Origin: Deinococcales bacterium
GTDB lineage: Bacteria > Deinococcota > Deinococci > Deinococcales > JAAFIG01
NCBI GenBank assembly: GCA_031414595.1
Contig: JANNVX010000058.1
Location: 1-38,910, forward strand
Reading direction: 5' to 3'
DNA: 38,910 nucleotides
Below are positions 8,118 to 38,910 of the stretch, one piece after another; position 1 is the stretch's first letter, and each line of letters opens with the position of its first letter. A program made the translations under genes and the position numbers. The notes under the pieces were generated by a model that worked only from the letters and a program-made list of their open reading frames with translations, was not told where the DNA came from and ran no database searches.

Positions 8118-8127
8118 TTCTACCCCC

Positions 8128-8814: not shown

Positions 8815-8828
8815 GGTCACCTCCTATC

Positions 8829-9320
8829 TTATCTTAGAGCGACAATGGTTGCTATGTTACTTGAAGCAACCGAAAGTTTAACTGAAAAAATCACTGTTTT
8901 TAATGTGGTATTTTCACTTTTCCCACATTGAGATTCAACAACCCAAGAAAAAGTCAAAACAGTAAATCTGCTAGTTTCTAGTACATCCGAAATTGTTTCG
9001 ATATAAGAAGGTGCGTCTAGAAATTTGCTAGTGCAATTCTTTGAGTAAAGAAATTGTAGGATAAAATTCTGTAACCTAGAATCTGAACGCCATGCAAATT
9101 CAGAGATTCCGCCCAAAAAAGCTCGAGTTTTTTCGGCAACAATTTCTCGGGACGATATTTGTACAAGTGGAAACTGTAAATTCAGAGTTGGATTCGGGAT
9201 GAATAAGTTGCCACCAAAAGCCAAAACTGTTGCAATGACAACCGTTACGATACCCGCGATGATTTGCTTTTCAAATTCATTAAAGAACTTTTTCCCATAC
9301 GGTGTGTTCGGCTGTGACAT
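8829..9320 (-). CDS. Hypothetical protein with an N-terminal TM helix
   Basis: AGGAGG RBS before ATG 9320. Hydrophobic IIAGIVTVVIATVLAFGG. Tightly packed with the vWA gene. Confidence 0.65.
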   Translation of the reverse strand: MSQPNTPYGKKFFNEFEKQIIAGIVTVVIATVLAFGGNLFIPNPTLNLQFPLVQISSREIVAEKTRAFLGGISEFAWRSDSRLQNFILQFLYSKNCTSKFLDAPSYIETISDVLETSRFTVLTFSWVVESQCGKSENTTLKTVIFSVKLSVASSNIATIVALR

Positions 9321-9445
9321 AAATCTCCTCCTAGACATATTGGGTGTAGTATATTTTGATTGTCGGAATTTATTTTACTACAAAATGATTCAGTCGTTAA
9401 GTTATTTGAAATACCAACATACCAACCATTCACATCTAAATTTTT

Positions 9446-11167: not shown

Positions 11168-11234
11168 CATATACAATTCTTGTAAGCTCTTGCTAAAGTC
11201 GGTTCAAAAGTTCAAAAGACTAATTGTTCATCGG

Positions 11235-11606
11235 TTAATTTTTGATGCGTAAACTGGCACGTTCACACAGCACTTCAAGCACCTCAAACATGCACAGCAC
11301 TTGATACTGACGAACCCGAGTTGGCTCGAGAACGGCTGTCTCGAGCCACAAACTGCCCTGCACCTCATCGTAACTGCTGCTCAAGTTGCCGCGAAAATCA
11401 TCTAAGTGCGTGACTGACCAAACCCGCACGCCACTAAACTCAAAAAAACATTGTTCTGTTCCCAAACCACCTTCAGAGGTGTACTCGAGATGTAAACTTG
11501 CCTCGAGTTTCAACACCCCCTGCACATATTCGAGACGCTGCAAGACCAGTGCTTCACGCCCCCGCAGAATCCCGTGCCTGGTTTTAATTGGCTGGTAGTG
11601 GGGCAT
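11235..11606 (-). CDS. Hypothetical protein
   Basis: 123-aa ORF starting 10 nt after the upstream stop, with an AGAGG RBS. No motif recognised. Confidence 0.6.
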   Translation of the reverse strand: MPHYQPIKTRHGILRGREALVLQRLEYVQGVLKLEASLHLEYTSEGGLGTEQCFFEFSGVRVWSVTHLDDFRGNLSSSYDEVQGSLWLETAVLEPTRVRQYQVLCMFEVLEVLCERASLRIKN

Positions 11607-14564: not shown

Positions 14565-14898
14565 ATTCCTTTAATGACTCCAAACTTTGCGAAATGGGTA
14601 TCTGATTGACTTCTACCCAAGCATGGGACGCAACAGGTTCATGTTGCACGCCAAATACCACAACACCACAAATATTATTTTTTCGTAATAAATGTACCAG
14701 AAGTGTAGACCTGACTAAGCAAGTGCAGTCAAAAGGTGCAAGGCTACAGACAAAATTAACAAGTCGTACAAATGATTTAGCTTGTTTTGGCTCGAGCTTG
14801 CCACGAGGTACACCAATAAAATGTGTAACTGCATTAATACCCTCACGTTCAATCGAGCGGCGTACTCTTGGCAACATCCAAGCTGTGTAAATCAGCAT
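14542..14898 (-). CDS. Lasso peptide leader peptidase (B2, transglutaminase-like)
   Basis: TCLVRS (catalytic Cys), VVFGV and SHAWVE (His) motifs in a 118-aa protein. Confidence 0.9.
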   Translation of the reverse strand: MLIYTAWMLPRVRRSIEREGINAVTHFIGVPRGKLEPKQAKSFVRLVNFVCSLAPFDCTCLVRSTLLVHLLRKNNICGVVVFGVQHEPVASHAWVEVNQIPISQSLESLKEYDRIAEF

Positions 14899-15164
14899 GA
14901 TTCCTCAGTGATTAAATGATGTTGTTGCAGCAAAGCAATACTTTCTCGAACTGATTGCTCGAGTTCTAAATCTGTACCTTCAAATTCTTCTTTAAAGCAT
15001 TTGAGAATTTGTTCAAAATTAGCTGGTAGTGCTTGCCAAACAGCATTGATAATATCATCACCACGTAGCACTACATCGCCTGAAAAATGAATGAAGACAA
15101 CAGACTGATTTGCGGCATTGACACTGACCTTGACACTCTCGAGTGGTTTCCAAATGATGCTCAT
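14892..15164 (-). CDS. Lasso peptide RRE / PqqD-family protein (B1/E)
   Basis: 90 aa with beta strands followed by 'VWQAL...FEQILKCFKEEFE...LEQSVRESIALLQQHHLI', the PqqD winged-helix pattern. Lies between the ABC and B2 genes. Confidence 0.8.
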   Translation of the reverse strand: MSIIWKPLESVKVSVNAANQSVVFIHFSGDVVLRGDDIINAVWQALPANFEQILKCFKEEFEGTDLELEQSVRESIALLQQHHLITEESC

Positions 15165-16639
15165 GTTGCCTCGAGAATAGTTACTCGGTCATTGCTATCC
15201 CGTTGCAGTATCACCACATTATCCGCTAAACTCTGTACAAGTGGCTGGTGAGCAACCACGACGGTCTTGAGCTTCTGTCGATACTTTTTGATAATGCCAA
15301 CAGCTTTTTCGGCTAAAGCATCATTCATAGCGCTAAAACTTTCATCTAAATAGACTAAACGTGGTGAATCTGCCACTATTAAAGCCAGTGCCACCAGTTG
15401 TCTTTCGCCACCCGACAATTTAGCCAAGGGTAAGGTCAAATCTGTTACTTTAAGAAGCCCAAGTAATTCTTGAGAAACTTCTGCTTTTACCTGTGGTAAG
15501 TCCAATATTTCTTGTAAAGTCCAATCTGGAAACTCGAGTCGCTGATGTAAATACCGAACATTTTTACGTTCACCATGATTAAATAAGGCTGACATCAGAG
15601 TTGTCTTACCAACGCCTGTTGCTCCTGTTAGAACCGTTAGCCCCTGTTTAGGCTCGAGTTGCAAAGCTGGTAGTGGTGGTTGTTCGGGTTCTCGAGCTAA
15701 AAAAGTTTTGATACGGTCAAATGCACCTGAAAGTTGGCTATGCTGCGACCAAGCGTCTATAACTGTGTTTATATCGTTAATAAAGTGACTTGCATACATT
15801 GATAAAGCAATTGCTAGACCTGTACTGACTGTTCCATCTTGAATCTGAGGAAGCAAAAAGACAAAACCTAATGGTGTAAGCAAAAAGTTGAAGAAAACAA
15901 AACTATAACTAGCCAGTGTAGTTTGAACACTTAAACGTTGGGCTTTTTGAATCGCAGTATTAAATTTTTCTTCGTAAATTTTTGATTGACGATTAAAAAC
16001 TGTTATTTGTACAAATTGTCCGACTCCCATAATAAGATTTTCTAATTTCTCTGTAACTTGTCCCCAAGCACCATAATATGCCTTACTTGACTTTTCAACA
16101 CTTTTATTGAGCCACCAAGGAATCCACAGTGCTAAAATCGTATAAATCAGAACAAAAATTGTTAAAGATATAGACTGTGTAAGTAAGATTGCAAATCCAA
16201 TGACAGCTTTCAAAAAACCAAAACTCGCATCCTGTATCATTCGCCAATATATTCTGTACTCGGTCGCATCGTTCATCGCAAGTTGCAATGTTTCAGGGTT
16301 CAATTGCTGATTAATATCTGTGTCTGTATGTATTTTAAGTTTTAAGACAAGTTGATTACGAATAGATTTCATAGCTCCCATTGCTAGAGTGGAACGAGCA
16401 AATGAAAGCAAGGTAGCAAAACTAATTAAAAGTATTACCAAGCCCACATAAGTAAAGACAAATTTAGGCATTTGCTCAAGGCTTTTCTTACCTAATACTT
16501 CATCCACAACTAAGCGGTAAACTTGTGGAAAGGTAGATTCCACTATCGCCATTCCAATGACAGAAAAAATCAAAAGACCGAGTATTTTCGGATCAAATGA
16601 GTTGGGTTTTAATGAACGGTTCTTTTCTTGATTGATCAT
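15161..16639 (-). CDS. ABC exporter, fused TMD + compact NBD (lasso D protein)
   Basis: Multi-TM N-terminus, Walker A GATGVGKT, LSGGE signature, Walker B LVYLDE and VVAH. ATGA overlap with the RRE gene. Confidence 0.85.
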   Translation of the reverse strand: MINQEKNRSLKPNSFDPKILGLLIFSVIGMAIVESTFPQVYRLVVDEVLGKKSLEQMPKFVFTYVGLVILLISFATLLSFARSTLAMGAMKSIRNQLVLKLKIHTDTDINQQLNPETLQLAMNDATEYRIYWRMIQDASFGFLKAVIGFAILLTQSISLTIFVLIYTILALWIPWWLNKSVEKSSKAYYGAWGQVTEKLENLIMGVGQFVQITVFNRQSKIYEEKFNTAIQKAQRLSVQTTLASYSFVFFNFLLTPLGFVFLLPQIQDGTVSTGLAIALSMYASHFINDINTVIDAWSQHSQLSGAFDRIKTFLAREPEQPPLPALQLEPKQGLTVLTGATGVGKTTLMSALFNHGERKNVRYLHQRLEFPDWTLQEILDLPQVKAEVSQELLGLLKVTDLTLPLAKLSGGERQLVALALIVADSPRLVYLDESFSAMNDALAEKAVGIIKKYRQKLKTVVVAHQPLVQSLADNVVILQRDSNDRVTILEAT

Positions 16640-30523: not shown

Positions 30524-30549
30524 AAATTGTTTAGTGATTTGTCTGCCCC

Positions 30550-30578
30550 TTTACAAAACGGATTTTGTTTGCTAAGTT
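30550..30578 (+). promoter_or_regulatory. Putative sigma70-type promoter of rplJ-rplL
   Basis: TTTACA-17 nt-TAAGTT with an extended TG. Confidence 0.5.
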
Positions 30579-30634
30579 ACTGCGGCTGCCCAAAAGCAGT
30601 CATTCTCGAGTTTGCTCGAGACACGGGAAACCGT

Positions 30635-30755
30635 GGGCATTGGAGACAGCGGGGGCTGCCGAGCTTAATGATCCCGCCGAGATGCGCGTACCTTAAATTA
30701 CTTAAGTATGCCGCGTTTTAGAGTCAAAAGAACAGTCAAACGCGGCTTTTTTATG
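30635..30755 (+). promoter_or_regulatory. Ribosomal protein L10 leader with attenuator hairpin
   Basis: AGACAGCGGG...TTAAT..CCCGCCGAG core, followed by GCCGCGTTT...AAACGCGGC-TTTTTT just upstream of rplJ. Confidence 0.8.
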
Positions 30756-30781
30756 CTGCCTTGACCACAAAGGAGAAAAAC

Positions 30782-31279
30782 GTGGCGAACATTAGAAATA
30801 CCGAAACACTCGCCTCGCTAAAAGCTGCCCTTGAAGGACAGTCGAGCTTCTATGTTGTAAATTACCAAGGTCTGCCCAGCAATCAAATTGTCGCCCTGCG
30901 AAAAGAACTTCGCAGCATCGGCGCTTCGATTCTGGTTGCCAAAAATACCCTGATTCACAAGGCTGTGTCCGAACGTGGTTTCGAGATGCGCGATGTGTTT
31001 CATGGTCCCAGTGCGCTTGTACTGGTAGGCGATGACGCGGTTACACCCGTCAAAAGACTAGCCGAATTTGCCAAGAAGAACGACAAAGGAATTCCACAAG
31101 CCAAAGGTGGAGTTCTTGACGGGGAAATGCTCGATGCGAAGAAACTTGAAGCCCTAAGCAACATGCCAAGCAAAGACGAATTACGCGCCCAAATGGTTGG
31201 CGTACTCTCGAGTAAGCTCTCGGAATTTGTTGGTATCTTAGAAGCAAAAGTCGCAAAAGACGAAGGCGTAAGCGCCTGA
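30782..31279 (+). CDS. rplJ: 50S ribosomal protein L10
   Basis: NYQGL, LRKELR, VAKNTL and GPSAL motifs. GTG 30782 follows an AGGAG RBS. Confidence 0.96.
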
Positions 31280-31316
31280 ACAGCACCAGGCGTATCCGCC
31301 TGAAGGTAGGAGAATT

Positions 31317-31685
31317 ATGGCATTAGATATTGCAAGCATTAAAGAACAACTTTCCGGCGCAACTGTCCTCGAGTTGAAATCATTGATTGATGACCTCAAA
31401 GAAACTTGGGGCGTAACCGCAATGGTTGCTTCAGGTCCAGCCGCAGCAGGTCCTGCTGAAATTGTCGAAGAGAAGACCGAATTTGATGTTATCCTCAAGA
31501 GCATTGACGCAGCCAAGAAAATTGCTGTGATTAAAGAAGTCCGTGCGATTACTGGTTTAGGATTGTCCGAAGCCAAGGCATTGACCGAAAATGGTGGCAA
31601 CATCAAAGAAGGCATCAACAAGGATGACGCAGCCAAGCTCAAAAAGCAACTCGAAGATGCTGGTGCAGTTGTCGAAGTCAAATAA
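31317..31685 (+). CDS. rplL: 50S ribosomal protein L7/L12
   Basis: [26 protein letters not shown] and [11 protein letters not shown] motifs. Confidence 0.98.
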
Positions 31686-31720
31686 TATGTTAGTATAACT
31701 CGAGGGCTTCCTCGAGTTTT

Positions 31721-31795
31721 GGGCAGGTAGCTCAGCGGTAGAGCGGTCGCCTTACAAGCGACTGGTCGCAGGTTCAATCCCTGTCCTGCCCACCA
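31721..31795 (+). tRNA. tRNA-Val (anticodon TAC)
   Basis: Cloverleaf with acceptor GGGCAGG/CCTGCCC, anticodon arm GTCGC-CTTACAA-GCGAC, T-loop GGTTCAATCC and encoded CCA. Confidence 0.96.
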
Positions 31796-31796
31796 C
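31751..31796 (+). repeat. attL, 46-bp direct repeat (3' part of tRNA-Val)
   Basis: CTTACAAGCGACTGGTCGCAGGTTCAATCCCTGTCCTGCCCACCAC, identical to 38289-38334. Confidence 0.95.
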
Positions 31797-31800
31797 ACAG

Positions 31801-31843
31801 ACGCATTACTTACAGTTTATGTAGTAATGCGTTTCTTTATTTT
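31801..31843 (+). terminator. Element-supplied terminator downstream of tRNA-Val
   Basis: ACGCATTAC(T)TACA-GTTTA-TGTAGTAATGCGT followed by a T-rich tract. Confidence 0.65.
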
Positions 31844-32339
31844 CCAAACGTGTTCAAGGTCACGTTTCGCAGTTTTGGCGGTGCTTGTGGGTAGCGCTTT
31901 GACTGCTGCTATTCGAGCGGCGGACTTGCCCTCACTCCTCGAGCGGCATTTCCCTAATTCCCTCGAGCGTGGTTTCCGAGTTCGCCCCTTGTGGCGTTCC
32001 GAGTCTCGAGCCACAGACGCAGCCCTAAAACGCTTCAAAGATGGCGCGTGGGTGCTTACAGACTTTGCCCTGTCCAAGTCTTGGAATGCCTATCAATTCT
32101 TAACTGACTTGTGTTCCTATGCCCCTCGAGAAGCGGCGCGGCTGTTACTTGCTGAAACTGACACACAAGACACCCCAGCCAAACCCGTAGCCCTAACAAG
32201 CCCAGCCCCTCAACTTCTCGAGCCTGAAACCTTGGCAGAGTTGCCCGAGTGCCTGACTGACTTCCTACACTTGAATCGTTTGTACTTTGGCGGTCGTCTG
32301 ACCCACAACCCAGACGGCACAGTATCAAACGAAGCCTAA
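31827..32339 (+). CDS. Hypothetical protein resembling a degenerate primase zinc-binding (CHC2-like) domain
   Basis: ADLPSLLERHFP...PLWR.E...WVLTDF...NAYQFL...EAARLL follows the DnaG ZBD layout but lacks the Cys ligands. The start is uncertain and probably downstream (about 31880-31900). Confidence 0.5.
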   Translation: MRFFIFQTCSRSRFAVLAVLVGSALTAAIRAADLPSLLERHFPNSLERGFRVRPLWRSESRATDAALKRFKDGAWVLTDFALSKSWNAYQFLTDLCSYAPREAARLLLAETDTQDTPAKPVALTSPAPQLLEPETLAELPECLTDFLHLNRLYFGGRLTHNPDGTVSNEA

Positions 32340-32425
32340 ACCTATCTTCTCGAGCCTTTAGCCGATTGGATAGCTTCTGTATGTGTTGATTTTGGCATAG
32401 GACAGTACAAAGTAGGTGGTGAAAA

Positions 32426-32635
32426 GTGAGCCGAGAACTACGCACCCCTGTTTACTTGATACCCCTGTCCTTAAATCAAACCAAGCCCAGCACAGTGTTT
32501 TTGTCTCAAGTCGGGGTTCTTGCCCTTGCTTTTAGTGATGGCGCGGCTCGAGTCAGCTTGTCCAGTCGTCCGAGTCAATTATGCTCGAGTTGGGGGCTGT
32601 TGTGCGTTGCTTGGGTGGTGTGCCATGCCAATTAA
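32426..32635 (+). CDS. Small hypothetical ORF overlapping the putative dso and the rep start
   Basis: GTG preceded by AGGTGG, 69 aa. May instead be a frameshifted Rep N-terminus or non-coding origin sequence. Confidence 0.3.
   Translation: MSRELRTPVYLIPLSLNQTKPSTVFLSQVGVLALAFSDGAARVSLSSRPSQLCSSWGLLCVAWVVCHAN
32444..32468 (+). other. Putative double-strand origin (nick site)
   Basis: TACTTGATA matches the CTTG/ATA nick consensus of pC194/phiX174-type origins. It is flanked by two ACCCCTGT direct repeats and lies just upstream of rep. Confidence 0.5.
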
Positions 32636-33701
32636 ACGTTCTTTGGTCGTCTCATCACAAGACCGAATGCTGATAGCCCCATCTGGCAACACTTGGCGCG
32701 AAACTCACAGCGCCAAACGCAAACGCCGCAAACTCTCAGCACGGTTAAACGGTGGTGTCCGTGTTTACCTCAAGACTCGAGGCAGGGGCGCAAACAAGCG
32801 CTGTAGTGTTTTGACCTTAACCATTGACCCACAAGACCGCACCCCGAAACAAGCCTATGAGCAAATGTGCAAAGCATGGAATGCCCTGAGTACATGGTGG
32901 CGCAAACGCTACCCTGCCATGAGATTCTTTAGGACTGTAGAACTTCATGGGAACGGCTTCCCACACTTCCATGTGATGCTGATTGCAGCACCATTCATTC
33001 AACAAAAAGCGATTGTTGACCAGTGGAAAAACTTACTCGGGCAGTCTCGAGCAGTGGTAGACATTCGGGCAGTGCGAAACCCAGAACACGCCATACGCTA
33101 TGTGACTAAGTACCTCTTAAAGCAATCCGAAGCCCTCGAGCAAGTCAGAACCCAAGCCCAAGAAGCCTTTAAGACTGCCACAGAACAGGCGCTCGAGTGG
33201 CAAACAGCCGCCGATGCTGCCCGAAGTTTAGGACTCGAGGACGAAGCACGGCGCTGTGAACAGGAAGCCCAAAATATCGGCGGCGCTGGTGATGAAATGC
33301 GTATTGCTGCCCTGATTGCAGACATCAAACGAGCCAAAGCAGAAGGCAGGATAGAAAGCGCGGTGTATCAAGAAGAACTCTTAGAACAGGTGAAAGCCGA
33401 AATACAAGCGGCTCGAGAACAAGCCCAAGAACAACAGCAACAAGACCCCAACTCGAGAAACATTGCTGATGCGTCTTGGTGGGGTCGTCGGGTGCGTCCG
33501 TGGAGTGCAAGCCGTGGTTTGCTTGACTCAGAGCAAGGCACGGTTGATAAGTGGTGGAATAGTCTGTCAATCGTGCCAATGATTACACCGTTTCAGGCGT
33601 GTCAGATTGCCTATAGCCTAAATTTTGAGACATACAACTTTGATCCAAAAATAGGCTTTTATGACTTTCGAGCCAATGCCCCAAACCCAGCCCAAGCGTA
33701 A
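32625..33701 (+). CDS. HUH rolling-circle replication initiator (Rep)
   Basis: Motif I VLTLTID, motif II FPHFHVML (HUH), motif III YVTKYLLK (two Tyr) and distal RPWSASRG. The frame is open from 32520; ATG 32625 has a GGTGG RBS. Confidence 0.88.
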   Translation: MPIKRSLVVSSQDRMLIAPSGNTWRETHSAKRKRRKLSARLNGGVRVYLKTRGRGANKRCSVLTLTIDPQDRTPKQAYEQMCKAWNALSTWWRKRYPAMRFFRTVELHGNGFPHFHVMLIAAPFIQQKAIVDQWKNLLGQSRAVVDIRAVRNPEHAIRYVTKYLLKQSEALEQVRTQAQEAFKTATEQALEWQTAADAARSLGLEDEARRCEQEAQNIGGAGDEMRIAALIADIKRAKAEGRIESAVYQEELLEQVKAEIQAAREQAQEQQQQDPNSRNIADASWWGRRVRPWSASRGLLDSEQGTVDKWWNSLSIVPMITPFQACQIAYSLNFETYNFDPKIGFYDFRANAPNPAQA

Positions 33702-33851
33702 GCAACAAAACCAAAAAGTGAGACAATAGCGACCGGTGTCTATCCCAAAAGCTGGCTAGGACTCTAGCAGTCTAGCCAAGAATGTAAAGTAAAAAATGCC
33801 ACTGTGAGTAAGTAACAACGAACTCTGTAACTGATTTACCCTAACTGTAAC

Positions 33852-33880
33852 TTGAGTTTACGGTAAACTTAATATACTAC
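33852..33880 (+). promoter_or_regulatory. Putative promoter containing a palindromic operator
   Basis: TTGAGT-17 nt-TACTAC with the palindrome AGTTTAC-G-GTAAACT at 33855-33869. Confidence 0.45.
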
Positions 33881-33944
33881 GTGGTACTCGGTAATAAACC
33901 CTTATAATTTACCAGTGCTACACCTATAAAAAAGGTAGGAAACT

Positions 33945-34221
33945 ATGAAAACTTCGGTAGCTAGGTCAGTTCAAACGTGGCGTAGCCTTAATGCGAAAAA
34001 GCACCCACTTGATATAGAAACCCTAACGGATGCTCAATATACTCGAACATTTCTTTGGTACTGATTCGACGGCGGTTTTGCTCGAGAATGTTTCAGGTAT
34101 TCGTGAGTTATTGGAGCTTGACAAGAAGAAAGTCAGGGATTTGCTTTACTCGCCTTATATTGGTGAAGGTACAGCAGCACAAGTTATGATTTTATGCGAA
34201 ATGCTTAGAAGGGTGCGGTAG
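33945..34221 (+). pseudogene. Frameshifted RadC(UPF0758) N-terminal HhH-like gene, no JAB domain
   Basis: The frame from ATG 33945 (AGGA RBS) gives ...IETLTDAQ. Skipping one base near 34038 continues ILEHFFG...LLENVSGIRELL...IGEGTAAQVMILCEMLRR, matching the RadC N-terminal pattern. Confidence 0.6.
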
Positions 34222-34789
34222 TATTTTTGTGTGCCAAGGCTTCATATTGAAAACTTTTCAAAATTTGTGAATCAACCTCTTTAGCTTTCATAACTATCCA
34301 AGCTCCAAGACTTATGGCTAAATCAGTGCTGTTCTCGTATTTGTTAAATTTAATTAGCCACAAATCAAGGGCATCTGAAATTATTTCAGATTGAGTCTTT
34401 TTAGACTTCTTAGAAACGGTTCTTAGTCGTTCTTTGAGGCTTGGGCTTATGGTAAAAGTCAAATTTGACTTTTCTATTTTAGAGCCATCCAAAGTATTAA
34501 ACTTCCACAATTCGTATTTTTTATTTACGAAACATACAAGCGTCACTTTTTCGCTGAAGTCTTGCCATATCTTTTCTGGTGGGTCAATCGTTTGGTTTAA
34601 CTCTGGGTGAAAATTTAGCCATTCTTCAAGTGATTTACGAACAATCAAAGCAATAGAAATTTCTGCTAATTTTGCCATTAAATCTAACCTCAACTTTATT
34701 GCTGTAGGGATTTTAACGGTAAAACTCTTTGATCCAGACGCTATGCGAGGTCTTCCCCCCTTACTTATTTGGTTCGACAAATCGCCCAT
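34205..34789 (-). CDS. Tandem ribbon-helix-helix (CopG/Arc-like) transcriptional regulator
   Basis: Two RHH-like units, SFTVKIPTAIKLRLDLMAK...IALIVRKSLEEWL and LTFTISPSLKERLRTVSKK...QSEIISDALDLWL. N-terminal GGRPR. Confidence 0.72.
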   Translation of the reverse strand: MGDLSNQISKGGRPRIASGSKSFTVKIPTAIKLRLDLMAKLAEISIALIVRKSLEEWLNFHPELNQTIDPPEKIWQDFSEKVTLVCFVNKKYELWKFNTLDGSKIEKSNLTFTISPSLKERLRTVSKKSKKTQSEIISDALDLWLIKFNKYENSTDLAISLGAWIVMKAKEVDSQILKSFQYEALAHKNTTAPF

Positions 34790-34850
34790 AATCTCATTCT
34801 ACATTCCTAAAGGCTAGTCATGATAATTTAGCATTTGAAAACCTATGTTA

Positions 34851-34879
34851 TTGACTTTTTTTCAAAATTAGTTTACTAT
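34851..34879 (+). promoter_or_regulatory. Near-consensus sigma70 promoter for the element's rightward operon
   Basis: TTGACT-17 nt-TACTAT. The -10 is overlapped by GTTTACTATC, which recurs as GTTTACCTATC at 34892-34902. Confidence 0.65.
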
Positions 34880-34929
34880 CGCAAAAAGGTGGTTTACCTA
34901 TCTTTTTGCTTGCAATAGGAGAACTGTAT

Positions 34930-35598
34930 ATGAGTACAAAACTTGTCAAAGTACCGTTAGCCGCGTATGAAAAAGCGGTCAAGCTATCTCAAGAGAAAGG
35001 CGTAACCATAGGCGCGGCTCTTGAGTATTTCGTGAACATGGGCGAGGTACAGCCGAATCAAGCTGACTCGGTAAACCAAAACGTGAATACTTATCCATCT
35101 TCTGTCATGGTCTCAATCGAGGACTCTAAACAAGTCCAGACATTACCGCGAGTAAATAACAATCTGAACGCTGGTGACATTATGGGTTTACTCGAGAAAG
35201 CCTATTCCAAAGGGCAAGACGATATTCTCAGTGAACAGCGCATGGAGTTGTTGGAAGAGGCTGCCGCGGTCAGCAAAGAAATGGTTATTTCAAATACTAA
35301 AAAGATGGACAAAATAGAAACCATTCTAGGTGGTTTAGGTTTAGGTCTGGCTGACCATCTCGAGCAGCACACACGAGTCATTCAAGGCGATGTAAACGCA
35401 ATGCAACCACAATCAACTATTGATGTAATTACGGAAGCATTTCGTAGGGTTAAAGGGCATGGTGATATGGAGAAAGCCCTAGAAAATTTCAAGACTCAAA
35501 CACAAATAGGCGAACTCGAGGATACAGAAGCCCCTGAATTGCAAGACGCTATAGAAACCCAGACACCACCTAAACGGCGTGGGTTTCTCGGCTTATGA
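34930..35598 (+). CDS. Hypothetical protein with RHH-like N-terminus and amphipathic C-terminal tail (KRRGFLGL)
   Basis: AGGAGA RBS before ATG 34930. KLVKVPLAAYEKAVKLSQEKGVTIGAALE fits an RHH pattern. Confidence 0.7.
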   Translation: MSTKLVKVPLAAYEKAVKLSQEKGVTIGAALEYFVNMGEVQPNQADSVNQNVNTYPSSVMVSIEDSKQVQTLPRVNNNLNAGDIMGLLEKAYSKGQDDILSEQRMELLEEAAAVSKEMVISNTKKMDKIETILGGLGLGLADHLEQHTRVIQGDVNAMQPQSTIDVITEAFRRVKGHGDMEKALENFKTQTQIGELEDTEAPELQDAIETQTPPKRRGFLGL

Positions 35599-35852
35599 GT
35601 CAGGACGTTAAAATCATGACTACAGCACTTGAAAAAGCAAATCATGCTGGTTATAGCGAAGGTCAACAAATTGGCGTTGTTGATGGTGTCGTTATTGGTC
35701 TTGTATTTGCGTTTGTGGCGGTGGCTTCGGTGTCCTACTTCTTACAACGTAAAGCACTGTTAGAAGTTCAAAAAAATAAATCTCAAACTTTACCTACTCC
35801 AAGTATTGCATTGGTAAGTAATGAAAAAGTTATGTCAGGAGGGTGGTTATGA
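35595..35852 (+). CDS. Small single-TM protein
   Basis: ATGA overlap with the upstream gene. Hydrophobic GVVIGLVFAFVAVASVSYFL followed by basic residues. Confidence 0.7.
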   Translation: MSQDVKIMTTALEKANHAGYSEGQQIGVVDGVVIGLVFAFVAVASVSYFLQRKALLEVQKNKSQTLPTPSIALVSNEKVMSGGWL

Positions 35853-36229
35853 GTCCTTTACTTGCACTTCAATGGATTTTTGGGGCGTTTGCTTCAATTT
35901 TTGGTTTGAAGCTGACTGCTGCACAATTGGGGTTTGATTTAACAATTTACAAGCCTACAGCCCCTCCCAACACGCCACAAGGTCAAGGTGGTGGCAATCC
36001 TGCCCCTAACCCACCAAATAATGGAAGTCTTGTCAAAGACTTGGTTAGCAATCCCTCGAGTATGTGGGCATTGGCTGCACTGGGTTTCGTCAGTGTATTC
36101 GTTATTGCTCAGGTTAGAGCGGCTGGTGGTGACGCGGCGGCAGGTGTGCGTGGCGTGTACAAAGAAGCCCAAGCAACAACAAGAAATCTGGCAGACCCAA
36201 ACACACAAATAAGAAAACGAAAGCGTTAG
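35849..36229 (+). CDS. Small membrane protein (two hydrophobic segments, Pro/Gly/Asn linker, basic C-terminus)
   Basis: GGAGG RBS and ATGA overlap. Hydrophobic LLALQWIFGAFASIFGL and MWALAALGFVSVFVIA. Ends in RKRKR. Confidence 0.72.
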   Translation: MSPLLALQWIFGAFASIFGLKLTAAQLGFDLTIYKPTAPPNTPQGQGGGNPAPNPPNNGSLVKDLVSNPSSMWALAALGFVSVFVIAQVRAAGGDAAAGVRGVYKEAQATTRNLADPNTQIRKRKR

Positions 36230-36257
36230 CCCAAGGACTCATTTTTTTAGGAGAACT

Positions 36258-36437
36258 ATGAAGTTAGTAGCTGGAATTGTTATTGGTTCAGTCGTTGGAA
36301 TTACGTTGTGGAACACCTTTATAACCATGCCTGACATGAGGAAGAGGCAAGAATACGCAATGAAAGAAAACGAACGCTGTAAAGCCCTCATGATGGCATA
36401 TTTCCCCGATAGAAAAGATATGTGGGGAATGATGTAA
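36258..36437 (+). CDS. 59-aa protein with an N-terminal TM helix (not in the ORF track)
   Basis: AGGAG RBS. Translates as MKLVAGIVIGSVVGITLWNTFITMPDMRKRQEYAMKENERCKALMMAYFPDRKDMWGMM. Confidence 0.68.
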   Translation: MKLVAGIVIGSVVGITLWNTFITMPDMRKRQEYAMKENERCKALMMAYFPDRKDMWGMM

Positions 36438-36461
36438 TTAGTAAGCCTAATAGGTGAATTT

Positions 36462-36701
36462 ATGAAATTGATAGGCGGAACAATGGTCGTTCTGGGTGGC
36501 TTAGGAGTTTTACAGGGAATAGTCACGTCAGGGAATATCTTGGGTGTGAGCTATGTTACTAACCCAAGTAACCCTTCACAAATTATCGAACCCAGTACAG
36601 AACAGCGTCTCAGAGCAATAGCAGGAACAGTCATAGTAACGGGTGCATCAGTCCTATTACTGTTTTGGGGTACTCAAATTTATAACAAAAAAGATGCGTG
36701 A
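36462..36701 (+). CDS. Small two-TM protein
   Basis: AGGTG RBS. Hydrophobic LIGGTMVVLGGLGVLQGIV and AIAGTVIVTGASVLLLFWG. Confidence 0.7.
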   Translation: MKLIGGTMVVLGGLGVLQGIVTSGNILGVSYVTNPSNPSQIIEPSTEQRLRAIAGTVIVTGASVLLLFWGTQIYNKKDA

Positions 36702-36712
36702 AGACGCAATGA

Positions 36713-36751
36713 AAACCCCGCGCTTTATGCTTGGCGGCTGGCGCGGGGTTT
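36713..36751. promoter_or_regulatory. GC-rich inverted repeat between the membrane-protein genes and the integrase module
   Basis: AAACCCCGCGC-17 nt-GCGCGGGGTTT. Confidence 0.55.
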
Positions 36752-36763
36752 GGGGATGAACTT

Positions 36764-37078
36764 ATGAATAAGGTAGCAGGAAAAGCATTGAATCACAAGT
36801 CTTTTGGTTCATCGGCTTTAAGTTTACAAGAGTTATCTCGGCTACGCCCCTTTATGCTTTTCTTTGAGTTTTTTCTTACACTCGAGGATTTAGAACGCAA
36901 TAGCCTTTCAGAGCGCGTTACTATACAAGCATACAGCGCTGTTCAAATGGCGGCGGCTTCCTTGTTTTCTGTACTTCTTAAAGCCCTACCCCCTCGAGTT
37001 GCCAGAGAAGCACAAAGCGCCATTCAAAACGCTCTTTTCTCGCTTGACTTGGAAGACCCGAAGAAGGGCGGCGCGTGA
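36764..37078 (+). CDS. Hypothetical protein
   Basis: Helical ORF directly upstream of the integrase. ATG 36764 chosen; function not recognised. Confidence 0.5.
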   Translation: MNKVAGKALNHKSFGSSALSLQELSRLRPFMLFFEFFLTLEDLERNSLSERVTIQAYSAVQMAAASLFSVLLKALPPRVAREAQSAIQNALFSLDLEDPKKGGA

Positions 37079-37111
37079 TGGCTTCTTTGTGCAAAGCCAT
37101 AGGCGGCACTC

Positions 37112-38209
37112 ATGCCTAGGCGCATTCTCAAAGATAGGGGTAGCACCAAGGCTAAAGCCCTGTCCCTTGCTGATTCCTCACCCTCAAGCATTTACGGACG
37201 CGTTGCAGCCGATAGGGTGGCAGGTCTTACAACTTTACAGCGTGGCATCCTACCTACTCCCCAAATGCTGCTTGGTGTTTGGCTTGAGCATTTTGTGACT
37301 TCCGAAACAACAGCCCAAACCCAAAGCACAAAAAAGAATGCTCGAGCTTACTTAAAGCGAATCCTGCCCGAATTGGGCGGGGTTCGGCTTGGTGCTTTGA
37401 ATCCGCTTATGTTGCGTTCGTTCATGGATTCAATCTGTGACTTGTCGAGCAGTACCCAACAAAAGATATACGGCTTATTAAAACGTGCCTTACAGGATGC
37501 GGTCAATCTCGAGGTGCTACCGCGTAACCCGATGACTGCTGTTAAACGCCCGAAGCTAAAACCAGTCAATGAGACTGAACCGCTCGAGCCTGAACAAGTC
37601 GAGAACCTGATTAGGCTCTTAAAAGGTCATCGGCTCGAGTTGCTGTTCCATCTTTGCTTTACTTGTGGCTTACGAATTGGTGAGGCGTGTGCTTTACGTT
37701 GGGATAATCTTCGCGGTTCGGTACTACAAGTCAATCACACCATTAACCGCTTCTACAGCAAGAAAAATGACGAAGAACTGTTTCGTCCTGCCAAGTCTGG
37801 TAGCGCTCGAGAAATGCGAATAGACGCGGATACACTGGCATTGTTTGCCCAGCACAAGACCCAGCAAGAACACCAGGGTCGGGGCTTTAATCCGCTTGGC
37901 TTGGTGTTCTTGTCCATTACTGGCACACCTTTAGATGCCAATAATTTTTATAACCGAGTCTTTAGAGACCTTCTCGAGCAAGCTGGACTACGCGCTCAAG
38001 GAACTCATGCCATGCGTAAAACCTACGCAACCCTTGCGGCTGTGGTGCTACCAATTCAGGATGTACAGGCACGGATGGGACACAAAGACCCGCGTATGAC
38101 GACTTTGCGGGTCTATGCCAAGAGCCAAGCAAGGCGCAATACAAAAGCAGCCGTGCCATTGTCTGAACTGATTAAGGCTTCAAAGATTGACGAGGCAGAC
38201 AGTGAGTAG
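37112..38209 (+). CDS. int: Tyrosine recombinase / phage-type integrase
   Basis: GLRIGE (R), AKSG (K), HAMRKTYAT (HxxR) and MGHKDPRMTTLRVY (H, Y) motifs. Core-binding region ALQDAV...LPRNPM. Adjacent to attR. Confidence 0.93.
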   Translation: MPRRILKDRGSTKAKALSLADSSPSSIYGRVAADRVAGLTTLQRGILPTPQMLLGVWLEHFVTSETTAQTQSTKKNARAYLKRILPELGGVRLGALNPLMLRSFMDSICDLSSSTQQKIYGLLKRALQDAVNLEVLPRNPMTAVKRPKLKPVNETEPLEPEQVENLIRLLKGHRLELLFHLCFTCGLRIGEACALRWDNLRGSVLQVNHTINRFYSKKNDEELFRPAKSGSAREMRIDADTLALFAQHKTQQEHQGRGFNPLGLVFLSITGTPLDANNFYNRVFRDLLEQAGLRAQGTHAMRKTYATLAAVVLPIQDVQARMGHKDPRMTTLRVYAKSQARRNTKAAVPLSELIKASKIDEADSE

Positions 38210-38288
38210 TATTTTGAGGTCATGGTGTGGCGTGGGTTTATCTCGCGTCACAGATTCAAATTTACAATACTTTACAAAATTGAAGCAT

Positions 38289-38334
38289 CTTACAAGCGAC
38301 TGGTCGCAGGTTCAATCCCTGTCCTGCCCACCAC
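38289..38334 (+). repeat. attR, 46-bp direct repeat (displaced 3' part of tRNA-Val)
   Basis: Identical to 31751-31796. Confidence 0.95.
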
Positions 38335-38340
38335 GTTAAG

Positions 38341-38374
38341 GACGCAAGAATTTAATTCTTGCGTCTCGTTTTTT
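38341..38374 (+). terminator. Probable original tRNA-Val terminator
   Basis: GACGCAAGAAT-TTA-ATTCTTGCGTC followed by TCGTTTTTT, directly after attR. Confidence 0.7.
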
Positions 38375-38399
38375 CTTGGCTTTACACCCTAACTACACC

Positions 38400-38738
38400 C
38401 TAACTCGCCCCTCGAGCTTTCCAATACTCGAGCCATTGGGGTTTGACCAGTGCCGCGTCAAGTTTCCAGCTTTGAATTGGGATATCGTAATGGGTTAAGC
38501 GTTCGCGCTGTGCTAAATCAAAAACCCTTTGCCCATAACTGCTTGACCTCGCGTAAGCACTTAGCCCGTTCAAGTCACCATACACAGCACTCGAGCTGCC
38601 AATACTGACCCCTGCCAGAATTGCCCTCGGGCGTTGGGGGTGATTCCAACCTCGAAAAGCGAGTGCAAGCAGCCACAGCAAAGGCTTAGGCGTGAGGCTC
38701 GAGAGGAGGTTTTGTGAGCCGTAGAAATTGCCGAACAT
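38400..38738 (-). CDS. Hypothetical protein, possibly a gene remnant next to the IS
   Basis: 112-aa ORF with no recognised motif, starting about 35 nt from the IS end. Confidence 0.35.
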   Translation of the reverse strand: MFGNFYGSQNLLSSLTPKPLLWLLALAFRGWNHPQRPRAILAGVSIGSSSAVYGDLNGLSAYARSSSYGQRVFDLAQRERLTHYDIPIQSWKLDAALVKPQWLEYWKARGAS

Positions 38739-38772: not shown

Positions 38773-38910
38773 TAGACGTTATCGGAAATAAGAAACTAGC
38801 TCGATTTCCGCAAAGCCCGTTTGCGAAAAGCACAGCGAAGGTTATGCAAACCACAAGCAATCTCCATAAACCAATCAGAGCAATACCACTTCGTATTCCG
38901 CAACACGTCC
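38773..38910 (-). mobile_element. Right end of a probable IS5-family (ISL2-group) insertion sequence
   Basis: Terminus-like TAGACGTTATCGGAAATA (38773-38790) lies just past the transposase stop. The partner end is outside the window. Confidence 0.6.
38796..38910 (-). CDS. DDE transposase C-terminal fragment (IS5/ISL2-like)
   Basis: Manual translation DVLRNTKWYCSDWFMEIACGLHNLRCAFRKRALRKSS* contains the 'MEIACGLHNLR' C-terminal pattern of DDE_Tnp_4 transposases. Confidence 0.72.
   Translation of the reverse strand, partial: DVLRNTKWYCSDWFMEIACGLHNLRCAFRKRALRKSS

Follow-up and report, generated by a model that had tools for sequence, protein, structure and literature searches.

Introduction

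Most IMEs measure 5–15 kb, and in the sections of the surveys drawn on here their target sites are often the 3' ends of tRNA or protein genes (PMC5357655, PMC5704250). For small plasmids and IMEs, the same sections describe RCR initiators (Rep_1, Rep_2 and Rep_trans types) with an actual or proposed relaxase role. AICEs are integrated at tRNA genes and combine a pC194-family RCR Rep with small hydrophobic Spd proteins, as described in the part of PMC2440964 used here. We analysed a stretch of 38,910 nucleotides from a Deinococcales bacterium (contig JANNVX010000058.1, the window) that carries a 6,538-bp insertion. The preliminary description of this locus is extended here by an origin block, the fold and stop codon of o170, the rarity of the Rep clade, equally small relatives and a link between tm128 and proviruses.

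Like the streptococcal IMEs with RCR-type relaxases, as portrayed in the consulted parts of PMC5357655 and PMC5704250, the element is small, compact and site-specifically integrated. It too lies at a tRNA gene, pairs a tyrosine integrase with an HUH/Rep-type initiator in place of a canonical MOB relaxase, encodes RHH accessory proteins and no mating pore, and falls inside the 5–15 kb range. It differs in its host phylum and in its Rep clade (PF23343/Rep_1, two-tyrosine), which is outside the IME families named in those parts; it also lacks a TcpA-type coupling protein, no conjugative helper was found in the MAG, and its mobilization is putative. With AICEs such as pSAM2 it shares integration in a tRNA gene, a tyrosine integrase, a rolling-circle Rep whose nick motif is of pC194/phiX type, small hydrophobic proteins and modular regulators (PMC2440964, same part), but it has no FtsK/SpoIIIE-type Tra gene and is ∼ 60% of the size of pSAM2. 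Its hydrophobic proteins apparently have no similarity to Spd proteins.

Replicons of the pC194/phiX174 superfamily likewise have the HUH motif, Y-x-x-K-Y and, close to rep, a conserved block that includes CTTGATA, whereas the element is integrative, carries a primase-ZBD-like gene alongside and has no match in 72,556 plasmid and 50,697 phage records. The Thermus viruses P23-77 and IN93 (Matshushitaviridae) have the same host phylum, and the tm128 family is common to their provirus relatives; unlike these viruses, the element lacks a packaging ATPase, VP16 and VP17, and it is one third of their genome size. The fusellovirus satellites pSSVi and pSSVx presumably resemble it in having about 6 kb, an integrase, a replication module and no capsid genes. 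The same features recur in PICMI, as far as the portion of PMC10803314 used here goes. PICMI and pSSVi/pSSVx differ in their replication and regulatory genes, and any satellite lifestyle of the element is putative.

Results

Insertion in a tRNA-Val gene

ARAGORN placed a tRNA-Val(tac) gene, the only tRNA gene of the window, at 31721–31795 (plus strand), with the anticodon at tRNA position 33. A repeat search found a perfect 46-nt direct repeat with copies at 31751–31796 (attL core) and 38289–38334 (attR core), at a spacing of 6538. The core starts two bases 5' of the anticodon and ends one base beyond the tRNA, the 3' part of the gene from the anticodon loop on being the attL copy. Both analyses agree with the preliminary description, in which 46-bp att repeats starting at the tRNA-Val anticodon loop bounded a 6,538-bp unit. 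An identity of 46/46 within 8.9 kb is far above chance; the next repeat families measured 20–33 nt at 70–85% identity. A terminator-like hairpin (38340–38366) lies 3' of the attR core.

The unit is an insertion because a congener, G003, has an empty site: on its contig C48 (L043), rplJ-rplL-tRNA-Val joins a homologue of window positions 38335–38395 directly (88% over 108 nt). The duplicated 3' half of tRNA-Val bounds a real mobile element of 6,538 bp. By Rep search the element was missing from 7/7 same-genus species representatives, which fits a recent gain. The identical 46-mer core flanks other integrases, only 33% identical, in G001 and G005, as expected of an integration hot spot.

The tyrosine integrase gene (37112–38209, plus strand) matches PF00589 (E 1.1e-17) and phrog_1 (E 3.5e-52). 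Read manually, the sequence has the residues R, K, HxxR, H and Y ordered as expected, the full catalytic set claimed before. An 83% identical integrase occurs in G003 within a different element at tRNA-Val(cac). The enzyme would recombine the attP core with the tRNA gene, and the reverse reaction would yield a 6,538-bp circle. No excisionase was recognizable in the window copy of the element; relative L008 has an HTH_17 excisionase-like gene, and L010 also has an excisionase-like gene. The earlier view of a discrete minimal tRNA-integrated rolling-circle element is upheld, its lineage being one of the Deinococcales.

Depths of the element contig and its flank in four runs of one study, possibly the source of the window, were 36.6/35.4, 25.7/25.2, 45.3/45.6 and 10.9–13.6/13.8, that is, about one element copy per chromosome. 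The excised 6,538-bp circle that had been proposed was not seen in the contigs of these runs, nor were extra copies, and no joints were reported; with k=31 the contigs cannot separate attL/attR from attB/attP.

Rep and the probable origin

The Rep gene (32625–33701, plus strand; 358 aa) encodes a rolling-circle protein of the HUH superfamily, two-tyrosine type, which matched PF23343 (E 1.2e-13) and Rep_1 (E 1.6e-9). The motifs H-F-H and Y-V-T-K-Y were invariant in 12/12 homologues (alignment A1). The HUH Rep noted earlier is thereby confirmed, with its start moved from the TTG of the longest ORF to the ATG at 32625. Homologues numbered 18 among 5.8 billion clusters. By tblastn, Rep matched none of the plasmid and phage records given above, and IMG/VR contained no relative beyond one 15-residue match. 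The clade is rare, and its members in the phylum all come from one uncultured Deinococcales family.

A block of ∼ 36 nt (32450–32485, plus strand), with CTTGATA at 32455–32461, sits 170 bp upstream of the rep ATG. In 6/6 aligned elements, whose Reps are 64% identical, the block was invariant but for one column, and its flanks were variable. Of the 19 family genomes searched, the 6 with Rep each had its 30-mer a single time (reversed control, 0), and IMG/VR did not contain it. CTTGATA preceded rep, on the same strand, in 5/5 distinct relatives. This motif is the nick-site core of the pC194/phiX174 superfamily. Conservation of the block points to a probable double-strand origin, with CTTGATA as the probable nick site at which Rep would start rolling-circle replication. 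In the 328-nt gap after rep there was no single-strand-origin-like fold (z −0.88 and −0.13).

The gene before the origin, o170 (31887–32339, plus strand; start corrected to GTG 31887), had 10 homologues, every one linked to this Rep family. Residues 1–99 of the L008 homologue, in its AlphaFold model, matched the DnaG ZBD 1d0q_A (Z 11.1, rmsd 2.4, 93 aa) and 2au3 (Z 9.8); the next unrelated row had Z 2.9. On this model, o170 is predicted to fold like a primase zinc-binding domain without the zinc ligands, and it may aid origin or single-strand recognition, or priming. The window copy has an in-frame TAA (32337–32339), and the conserved frame runs on to 32431; 9/9 other homologues read through this position for ∼ 27–30 conserved residues. 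The reading frame shows conservation beyond the TAA, which makes the mutation either recent or tolerated.

Regulators and membrane cassette

RHH194 (34205–34789, minus strand; 194 aa), a double ribbon-helix-helix regulator encoded divergently to the cassette operon, matched RHH_1 in two stretches (E 1.3e-6) and the Arc-like phrog_582. The o222 protein (34930–35598, plus strand) had no Pfam RHH match; its AlphaFold secondary structure (E3-9, H10-23, H27-37, H81-151) comprises a beta-alpha-alpha RHH N-terminus and a single helix of ∼ 70 residues, followed by a conserved basic/hydrophobic C-terminal tail. The two RHH-type genes listed previously are thus recovered, one by RHH_1 and one by its model. 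Only 6 matches to o222 were found in 1.84 billion representatives; homologues are present in L007, L008 and L049. RHH194 also gave a BfmA mobilization N-terminal match of 18.7 bits, below the cut-off of 24, and the L008 RHH protein a NikA-like match of 27.2 bits (cut-off 27), both weak matches to relaxosome accessory families. The small ORF o63 (34030–34221, plus strand), from the ORF list, lies in a low-GC stretch and had no family match; its one weak relative adjoins a provirus in L070.

Four plus-strand genes follow o222: tm85 (35595–35852), whose start overlaps the o222 stop, encodes a single-pass protein (TM 26–44); tm128 (35849–36229), also characterized by its homologues, has two hydrophobic segments, a Pro-rich linker and a basic C-terminal tail; tm59 (36258–36437) has an N-terminal hydrophobic segment, and tm79 (36462–36701) a signal-like segment and one TM segment. 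These segments, from a Kyte-Doolittle scan, bear out the earlier count of four small membrane proteins. The conserved helical protein o115 (36731–37078, plus strand) has 35% identical homologues in L008 and L007 and further ones in L068 and L049; ESM Atlas gave generic helical-repeat leads only. By the ORF list, cassette and int form one close-packed operon. The divergent RHH protein may repress this single operon, which would begin with the RHH/coiled-coil gene, continue into the membrane genes and end with int.

As a correction to the preliminary description, the cassette varies among relatives: only the gene after the RHH/coiled-coil gene (the tm85 position) keeps its place. In L008 and L049 the o222 homologue is followed by counterparts of tm85, which agree in position and have weak sequence likeness (26–29% identity); tm59 and tm79 had no homologue among the loci compared. 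The four-gene cassette thus appears lineage-specific. It would be accessory, and may serve to exclude, or interact with, membrane-containing viruses bearing a tm128 homologue.

Relatives and missing machinery

Relative L008, which is fully delimited (8,097 bp, 45-bp repeat), sits at tRNA-Pro and is built on the same plan. No Pfam ATPase or capsid match was obtained for its ORFs, and Walker A matches fell solely in short non-coding frames (18–56 aa). The element is thus no deletion remnant of a larger member of its own family, a possibility considered before. An element in G003 combines the backbone seen in the window (minus-strand RHH, RHH/coiled-coil, TM, o115, int) with another putative initiator (phrog_33635 endonuclease, E 8.7e-12), a modular shuffling typical of plasmid-like elements. 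L007 carries a TM gene and an M23 peptidase gene after rep; these genes and the tm128 provirus family are more virus-like than plasmid-like. In L011 the o170-origin-rep module stands alone, adjoining fakA and then cytochrome genes, which indicates that remnants of the family do occur.

The six frames of 31797–38288 contained no Walker A motif ([AG]xxxxGK[ST]), as the preliminary description had stated for the ORFs. No ORF reached the length, or the predicted beta content, that a spike or jelly-roll protein would need. Cassette proteins had no PHROG match at E below 0.01, the genome no Zot-family match, and the 94%-complete MAG no VirB4/VirD4. The earlier statement that a relaxase is missing stands for canonical MOB relaxases; it is no argument against plasmid-type mobilization, since RCR initiators act, or may act, as relaxases. 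The proposed CRISPR search gave 0/49 G000 spacers matching the element or its relatives.

Discussion

We favour, as the probable explanation, an integrative rolling-circle plasmid-like element of the general kind of IMEs with RCR-type initiators, or of AICEs minus the transfer gene. The locus is an insertion with an intact tyrosine integrase, an intact two-tyrosine HUH Rep and a conserved CTTGATA block. As it encodes no NTPase, capsid or mating-pore gene, it would need outside help to spread, whether from natural transformation, a virus, or a conjugative or DNA-pumping element. Counting against this explanation are the lack of a circle or extra copies, of an excisionase, of a single-strand-origin fold and of a helper, the o170 stop, the M23 and TM genes of L007 and the provirus family of tm128. 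Of the three options offered previously, the integrative plasmid is now the best reading and the autonomous ssDNA virus is disfavoured. A helper-dependent satellite gains a lead from tm128, but a lead only, such a lifestyle being possible. The idea of an ssDNA virus-like element or of spread by vesicles was overstated, as nothing shows ssDNA virions, vesicles or an excised circle.

It is very improbable that the element is an autonomous minimal ssDNA virus, filamentous (inovirus/plectrovirus-like) or pleomorphic (pleolipovirus-like), with the membrane proteins as coat or envelope. Its size would fit, the name of PF23343 derives from plectrovirus ORF2 and inovirus gpII, and three or four short TM proteins are a feature used to recognize inoviruses, but the morphogenesis ATPase pI is the sole conserved inovirus marker in the part of PMC6813254 consulted, and the element has no P-loop motif in any frame and the genome no Zot-family match. 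The missing ATPase rules out membership of the inoviruses or pleolipoviruses, and the resemblance drawn earlier fails there. The cassette without PHROG matches or conservation in relatives, the lack of an ORF suited to a spike or jelly-roll, and the Rep and origin searches of phage records and IMG/VR also argue against such a virus. A recently immobilized relic, vertically inherited in the integrated state and past excision and replication, is unlikely. The TAA in o170 where 9/9 homologues continue, the single copy per chromosome in four runs, the lack of an excisionase-like gene, unlike L008 and L010, and the remnant L011 would agree with it; yet the att cores are still identical, no reading frame of Rep, int or the cassette is interrupted, the origin block is undamaged, the o170 mutation is recent or tolerated, and the pattern in congeners fits a recent gain.

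Less unlikely, though still doubtful, is a satellite or hitch-hiker of P23-77/IN93-like internal-membrane viruses (Matshushitaviridae-like): excised and rolling-circle amplified DNA would be packaged, perhaps as a multimer, in helper capsids, and membrane proteins including tm128 would aid entry or redirect helper assembly. The tm128 family occurs in 19/364 Deinococcota genomes, and at 7/7 loci of at least 18 kb examined it lies in a P23-77/IN93-like provirus context, where it precedes genes for an M23 peptidase and for homologues of the P23-77 ATPase, VP15, VP16 (5/7) and VP17 (7/7). In the phage collection, matches of the provirus ATPase were confined to the Thermus viruses IN93, P23-77 and Tsatsa. 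The close-packed operon of cassette and int, the TM and M23 lysis-type genes of L007 and the minimal satellites known elsewhere (PICMI; PMC10803314, part used) are also in keeping with a satellite. Against it, proviruses share just 1/6 cassette genes, tm128, whose 33–40% identity makes the sharing old. A comparison of the window ORFs with 20 P23-77 proteins gave no match at E up to 1; in P23-77 itself no tm128 was detected, and the tm128 profile did not match the positional counterpart VP6 (hhalign probability 0.6%). The g5 relatives lack tm128 (0/6), the P23-77-type ATPase was not found in G000, where phrog_2666 matched FtsK-like genes only, no G000 spacer matched, and the depth ratio was about 1. 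In favour of a satellite, contig C690 of G001 encodes the ATPase (E 1.8e-63), VP15 and VP16, so the same genus hosts P23-77-like viruses; G001 also has a small-element-type contig carrying tm96-tm128-o115.

As a numerical coincidence only, 3 × 6,538 gives 19,614, and the IN93 record has 19,604 bp.

Insertion site

The preliminary description had delimited a 6,538-bp unit by perfect 46-bp att repeats at the anticodon loop of tRNA-Val, and ARAGORN, a repeat search and an empty site in a relative all agreed with it. The tRNA-Val(tac) gene at 31721-31795 was the sole tRNA that ARAGORN found in the window. The repeat search returned a perfect 46-nt direct repeat (31751-31796 and 38289-38334; spacing 6,538 bp start-to-start) that starts two bases 5' of the anticodon of this tRNA; the remaining repeat families of the region were imperfect and short. 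In G003, a genome of the same genus, contig C48 carries rplJ-rplL-tRNA-Val(tac) with 85% identity to window 30547-31805, and its tRNA stretch joins directly to a homologue of window 38289-38395 (88% over 108 nt). This element-free junction (locus L043) shows that the 6,538-bp unit is an insertion. A strong terminator-like hairpin lies at 38340-38366, 3' of the right att copy, as expected if the insertion displaced the tRNA's own terminator. The marks of site-specific integration, namely a tyrosine integrase, an att core duplicated from the 3' half of the tRNA and a relative with the site empty, were present.

The same tRNA-Val(tac) core (46/46) is also used by elements of the genomes G001 and G005, with integrases that are only 33% identical. 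Other elements occupied this core at three loci, L042 (G001:C462), L046 (G005:C745) and L050 (G001:C310); in G005, similarity to the window's left end (93%) extends ~90 nt beyond the core. Other contigs of the genus also contain the short repeats at 38326-38403 and ~38651-38715. The terminal 138 bases of the window (38773-38910) were found in a Logan contig at 25-35 times the flank depth in three metagenome runs and at about 9 times in a fourth, the latter value being taken from a depth bin. This stretch is either a high-copy repeat or sequence common to abundant other organisms.

Gene content

The gene map was based on Pfam, PHROGs and NCBIfam together with homologue alignments; NCBIfam gave generic recombinase names for the ORFs of the element and nothing further. 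All genes but RHH194 lie on the plus strand. The first gene, o170 (31887-32339; primase-ZBD-like by homologue model, no named family), is followed by Rep (32625-33701; 358 aa), by o63 (34030-34221; no family assigned) and, on the minus strand, by RHH194 (34205-34789), which encodes a double RHH protein. Then come o222 (34930-35598; RHH plus a long helix), the membrane proteins tm85 (35595-35852), tm128 (35849-36229), tm59 (36258-36437) and tm79 (36462-36701), the helical o115 (36731-37078; no family assigned) and Int (37112-38209). The four kinds of gene named in the preliminary description were all recovered: an HUH Rep (PF23343, E 1.2e-13; Rep_1, E 1.6e-9), an integrase (PF00589, E 1.1e-17; phrog_1, E 3.5e-52), two RHH-type genes (RHH194 and o222) and four small membrane proteins, each with one or two hydrophobic segments in a hydropathy scan. 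The reported lack of a Walker A motif also held, as a regular-expression scan of the element in six frames was empty.

In the AlphaFold model of o222 (pLDDT 68.6), an N-terminal strand and two helices, consistent with RHH, precede a single helix of ~70 residues and a disordered tail, the basic-hydrophobic end of which is conserved. The ESM Atlas gave an RHH lead at 0.85 for o222 and generic helical repeats only for o115; o222 had 6 matches among 1.84 billion representatives. By eye, o63 resembles the helix-hairpin-helix N-terminus of RadC-like proteins, with no family match. Both o63 and RHH194 fall where the GC content of the element is lowest (0.37). The genes from o222 to int overlap or are spaced by 25-34 nt and probably form a single operon, divergent from RHH194. 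A promoter scan gave a site count not above that of shuffles.

Rep and a predicted double-strand origin

Across 12 aligned Rep homologues, F-L-T-L-T, P-H-F-H and Y-V-T-K-Y were all invariant, with H114-F-H116 and Y159-x-x-K-Y163 kept in 12/12 sequences. Judged by these motifs, Rep is a two-tyrosine HUH initiator. Comparison of the Rep profile with PDB sequences gave no useful match.

Upstream of rep, a block of ~36 nt (32450-32485) was invariant but for one column in all six distinct elements aligned (that of the window and those at loci L007, L008, L009, L010 and L011), while the flanks varied. Conservation of the block between elements whose Reps are just 64% identical to that of the window argues for a cis-acting site. 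A 30-mer of the block occurred exactly once in each of the six Rep-bearing genomes among 19 family genomes scanned, and the reversed 30-mer used as a control had 0 occurrences in the same 19. Within the block, on the rep strand and 170 bp 5' of the rep ATG, lies CTTGATA, the core of the nick site in the pC194/phiX174 group; the heptamer by itself is not a rare sequence (8 occurrences in the window versus 4.1 expected). We take the block as the predicted double-strand origin, and it offers a direct target for purified Rep. A second CTTGATA at 34008 was rejected as an origin, being not conserved in the relatives. No structured single-strand origin was found in the 328-nt gap 3' of rep, where folding was no better than in shuffles (z -0.88 and -0.13).

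A primase-ZBD-like gene before the predicted origin

We found 10 homologues of o170 in a collection of 5.8 billion protein clusters, and all those that could be placed adjoin this Rep. In an AlphaFold model of the homologue from L008 (pLDDT 73.9), residues 1-99 match the zinc-binding domain of bacterial primases. The best rows of the structure comparison were the DnaG ZBD 1d0q_A (Z 11.1, rmsd 2.4 Å, 93 of 102 residues aligned), the primase 2au3 (Z 9.8) and two T4 primosome entries, presumably gp61 (Z about 6); the next unrelated row had Z 2.9. With the same model, the best two Foldseek matches were the same primase entries (E 0.024). The family retains a single invariant Cys and a single invariant His, so that zinc binding by this domain is unlikely, and the model points to a zinc-less primase-ZBD-like domain. 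A catalytic primase domain is absent from o170. A stand-alone protein of this type tied to a rolling-circle origin is not standard in such replicons. The o170 gene of the window has an in-frame TAA at 32337-32339; the other homologues (9/9) run on for ~27-30 conserved residues, and past the TAA the window's frame is open and conserved to 32431.

Relatives and distribution

Rep had 18 homologous clusters in the collection of 5.8 billion, and its closest relatives (84% and 70% identical) lie on contigs of 150 kb and 57 kb. A tblastn search of phage and plasmid collections gave no match, IMG/VR only one match of 15 residues, and a direct search of viral, genome and metagenome contigs with the single Rep nothing; the Rep loci analysed came from alignment-based searches. 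Literature searches directed at other subjects returned nothing on this Rep clade. Among 364 Deinococcota species genomes, six had strong Rep matches and two more had very weak ones. The six all belong to one MAG family: Rep was present in G000, the MAG of the window, and in 5/6 genomes of a sister genus. Locus L008 has the same plan as the element. Rep was absent from 7/7 other genomes of the window's genus.

L008, the best-delimited relative, is an 8,097-bp unit delimited by a repeat of 45 bp from the 3' half of tRNA-Pro(ggg). It starts with the o170 homologue, the origin block, Rep, a RelB-like pair and a minus-strand RHH gene (NikA-like, 27.2 bits at a cut-off of 27). Next come separate RHH and coiled-coil genes that jointly correspond to a split o222, and genes for one TM and one winged-helix-like protein. 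An o115 homologue, two unknown genes, an excisionase-like gene (HTH_17) and int complete the unit. None of its ORFs matched a Pfam ATPase, and Walker A occurred only in short non-coding frames. On this evidence the family is genuinely minimal. That the element might be a deletion remnant of a larger element of its own family, which the preliminary description named as a refuting outcome, is contradicted by the small size of L008 and by its ORFs, none of which matches a Pfam ATPase.

The other loci vary around this plan. In L009 and L011 the o170-origin-rep module follows fakA without a tRNA, and in L011 cytochrome genes come directly after the module. L007 is without o170 and int and has a TM gene and an M23 peptidase 3' of rep. 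L010 has the order Xis-Int-att-o170-Rep; we rejected its reading as an attP circle junction and regard it as a tandem junction, because, in the same MAG, tRNA-Pro is followed by a PrimPol-type element and an L008-type int-attR end lies on a separate contig. In this MAG (G017; L034, L010 and L035), the tandem at tRNA-Pro(ggg) consists of the PrimPol-type and then the L008-like rolling-circle element and ends beside groEL.

In G003, locus L049 (C32:50500-61500) starts just 3' of tRNA-Val(cac) and, ~7.5 kb on, has an integrase that shares 83% identity with that of the window; a search of this locus for an att repeat or right boundary found none. Between tRNA and int lie a minus-strand RHH gene, a split o222 homologue, a tm85-like gene, an o115-like ORF and a PIN toxin pair. 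A 523-aa protein takes the place of o170 and Rep; its sole match was to a PHROG 'endonuclease' (E 8.7e-12), and its assignment as a Rep_trans protein was dropped as it had no Pfam support. This shuffled backbone, together with the tRNA-Val core common to 33%-identical integrases, argues that modules are exchanged freely, as in plasmid-like or IME-like elements. A 4,746-bp contig of a Planctomycetota MAG (L012) has a 141-bp terminal overlap and is thus probably a closed circle of ~4.6 kb; it carries a distant Rep (29% identical, PF23343) and a staphylococcal-nuclease-like gene, and no integrase.

Copy state and candidate helpers in the host genome

Sequence of the element was found in five metagenome runs, and all sampled words in four of them (X1-X4), which come from one freshwater sediment study and may be where the window originates. 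In Logan contigs (k=31), the depth of the element contig was 36.6 in X1 (left flank 35.4, right flank 34.2), 25.7 in X2 (25.2 and 20), 45.3 in X3 (45.6 and 47.9) and 10.9-13.6 in X4 (13.8 and 13). The unitig of the 46-nt repeat had ~2x flank depth where listed. The element is present at one copy per chromosome in these runs. The k=31 contigs showed no joints and no sequence differences at a depth ratio of ~1, and in such contigs the integrated and excised arrangements look the same.

No match to the Zot (PF05707), VirB4 or VirD4 families was found in G000, which is 94% complete. Besides the host FtsK, G000 has a second FtsK/HerA-like ATPase gene at the start of contig C3, which is patchy in distribution (3/21 genomes searched, G000 included). 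This gene (L054, G000:C3:49-2325) is truncated at the contig start and encodes 758 aa of an FtsK/SpoIIIE-HerA-like protein, with a Phd/ParE pair and housekeeping genes after it; the product is possibly a DNA translocase of another mobile element. As a probe for helpers, phrog_2666 was discarded as unspecific, since it matches host FtsK in 19/19 genomes; only its matches to short open frames (~230-245 aa) were informative. G000 has CRISPR arrays on C11, C82 and C101 with 18, 14 and 20 copies of a 35-nt repeat, and the C11 repeat is in part similar to the C82/C101 repeat read as its reverse complement. Spacers directed against the element, a search for which the preliminary description had proposed, did not turn up: 0/49 in the three arrays matched the element or its relatives over >18 of 34 nt.

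tm128 and P23-77-like proviruses

In the clustered collection, tm128 had 4 homologues, on contigs of 1.1-5.9 kb. A profile search found relatives in 19 of 364 Deinococcota genomes: besides G000, 2/7 genomes of its own genus, 6/111 of genus g7, 3/3 of g26, 6/26 of g13 and one weak match in g19. The sister genus bearing the Rep had none (0/6). We examined eight contexts, seven of 18-20 kb and one contig of 2.9 kb. In all seven long contexts, tm128 lies within a provirus resembling the Thermus viruses P23-77 and IN93 (L063-L067, L069 and L070, in G122, G060, G126, G206, G203, G169 and G101; three other Deinococcota genera). An M23 peptidase gene follows within 1-2.5 kb of tm128 (7/7), and further on lie homologues of the P23-77 packaging ATPase (7/7), VP15 (7/7), the small capsid protein VP16 (5/7) and the large capsid protein VP17 (7/7), often with ORF28 and VP29. 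The proviruses thus share a conserved tm128-(ORF7-like)-M23 peptidase block 5' of the ATPase. Against a phage collection, one provirus ATPase matched only the Thermus viruses IN93, P23-77 and Tsatsa. In L063, the provirus additionally encodes a serine recombinase and an S24/HTH repressor.

At two loci the gene 3' of tm128 resembles P23-77 ORF7, and in P23-77 the gene before ORF7 encodes the structural protein VP6; homology of tm128 to VP6 was rejected by profile comparison (hhalign probability 0.6%). A holin function was considered for tm128 in view of its position upstream of the M23 peptidase, its two hydrophobic segments and its charged tail. A tblastn search of the phage collection with tm128 gave no match. 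The 2.9-kb contig, from G001, carries a tm85-like gene, tm128 and an o115-like gene, arranged as in the window, and other contigs of G001 bear a P23-77-type ATPase (E 1.8e-63), VP15 and VP16. No window gene other than tm128 had a relative in the proviruses. The absence of a capsid gene noted in the preliminary description was likewise upheld: 20 P23-77 proteins found no match among the window ORFs at E up to 1 (phmmer), whereas the same 20 do find homologues in the seven provirus loci.

Relationship to known elements

The insertion, the integrase, the HUH Rep, the origin-like block, the small relatives and the lack of an NTPase or capsid gene argue together for an integrative rolling-circle replicon. 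Membership among inoviruses or pleolipoviruses, doubted from the start for want of an ATPase, fails on the empty six-frame search for Walker A. Pleolipoviridae are defined by a conserved NTPase together with their spike and membrane proteins; the element, in contrast, has no NTPase motif, and its largest ORF besides Rep and Int is o222, of 222 aa. Matshushitaviridae have a packaging ATPase and the single-jelly-roll proteins VP16 and VP17, which are absent from the element (phmmer). For inoviruses, PMC6813254 gives a pI-like (Zot/FtsK-HerA) morphogenesis ATPase as the marker, whereas the element is without one and PF05707 is also unmatched genome-wide. In size and hydropathy, tm85, tm59 and tm79 would fit the short (30-90 aa) single-TMD structural proteins of inoviruses; they had no PHROG similarity at E below 0.01.

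The closest described kinds are AICEs and IMEs that use RCR-type initiators; by analogy with the latter (PMC5357655, PMC5704250) the Rep of the element could serve as relaxase. RHH matches to the NikA and BfmA families were at or below the cut-off. AICEs such as pSAM2 are tRNA-integrated and combine a pC194-family RCR Rep and small hydrophobic Spd proteins with an FtsK-type Tra (PMC2440964); unlike them, the element is without an FtsK/SpoIIIE-domain Tra, with neither Walker A in six frames nor such a Pfam match. An element first filed as an IME is reported to be a budding virus, of 21-28 kb and with a pI-like ATPase, in the recent preprint bioRxiv 10.64898/2026.09.15.751708.

Two other readings bear on how the element moves. 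It and its kin might be satellites of P23-77/IN93-like internal-membrane icosahedral viruses, that is, minimal integrative rolling-circle replicons with their own copy of a viral membrane-protein gene, riding in helper capsids. The tm128 family common to the element and the proviruses, the lysis-type genes in L007 and the occurrence of P23-77-like viruses in the same genus (G001) are indirect leads towards this; tm128 is the one gene so shared, and we consider the satellite reading unlikely. To our knowledge it would, if true, be the first satellite of a bacterial single-jelly-roll, internal-membrane virus. Slightly less probable still is that the window holds a recently immobilised copy, to which the in-frame stop in o170, the absence of a gene resembling an excisionase and a depth of one copy would point; its integrase and HUH Rep are both intact. 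We favour an integrative rolling-circle replicon. The integrase-plus-Rep kind is itself already known, and small elements of this kind without transfer genes are seemingly widespread and little described. New are the Deinococcales lineage and a Rep clade that is rare, an origin block kept in the relatives, a zinc-less primase-ZBD-like gene that stands alone, a backbone of RHH/coiled-coil and TM genes, and the gene family common to the element and P23-77-like proviruses, the last offering a concrete route to probing how minimal elements move between cells.

Other regions of the window

The stretch 6495-11606 is low in GC (0.38-0.43 versus about 0.48), and its five ORFs of 123-573 aa had no Pfam match at E 1e-5. 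A second low-GC stretch, at 12927-16639, has an asparagine-synthase-like gene beside that of an ABC exporter; the two may form a small cluster for peptide modification and export.
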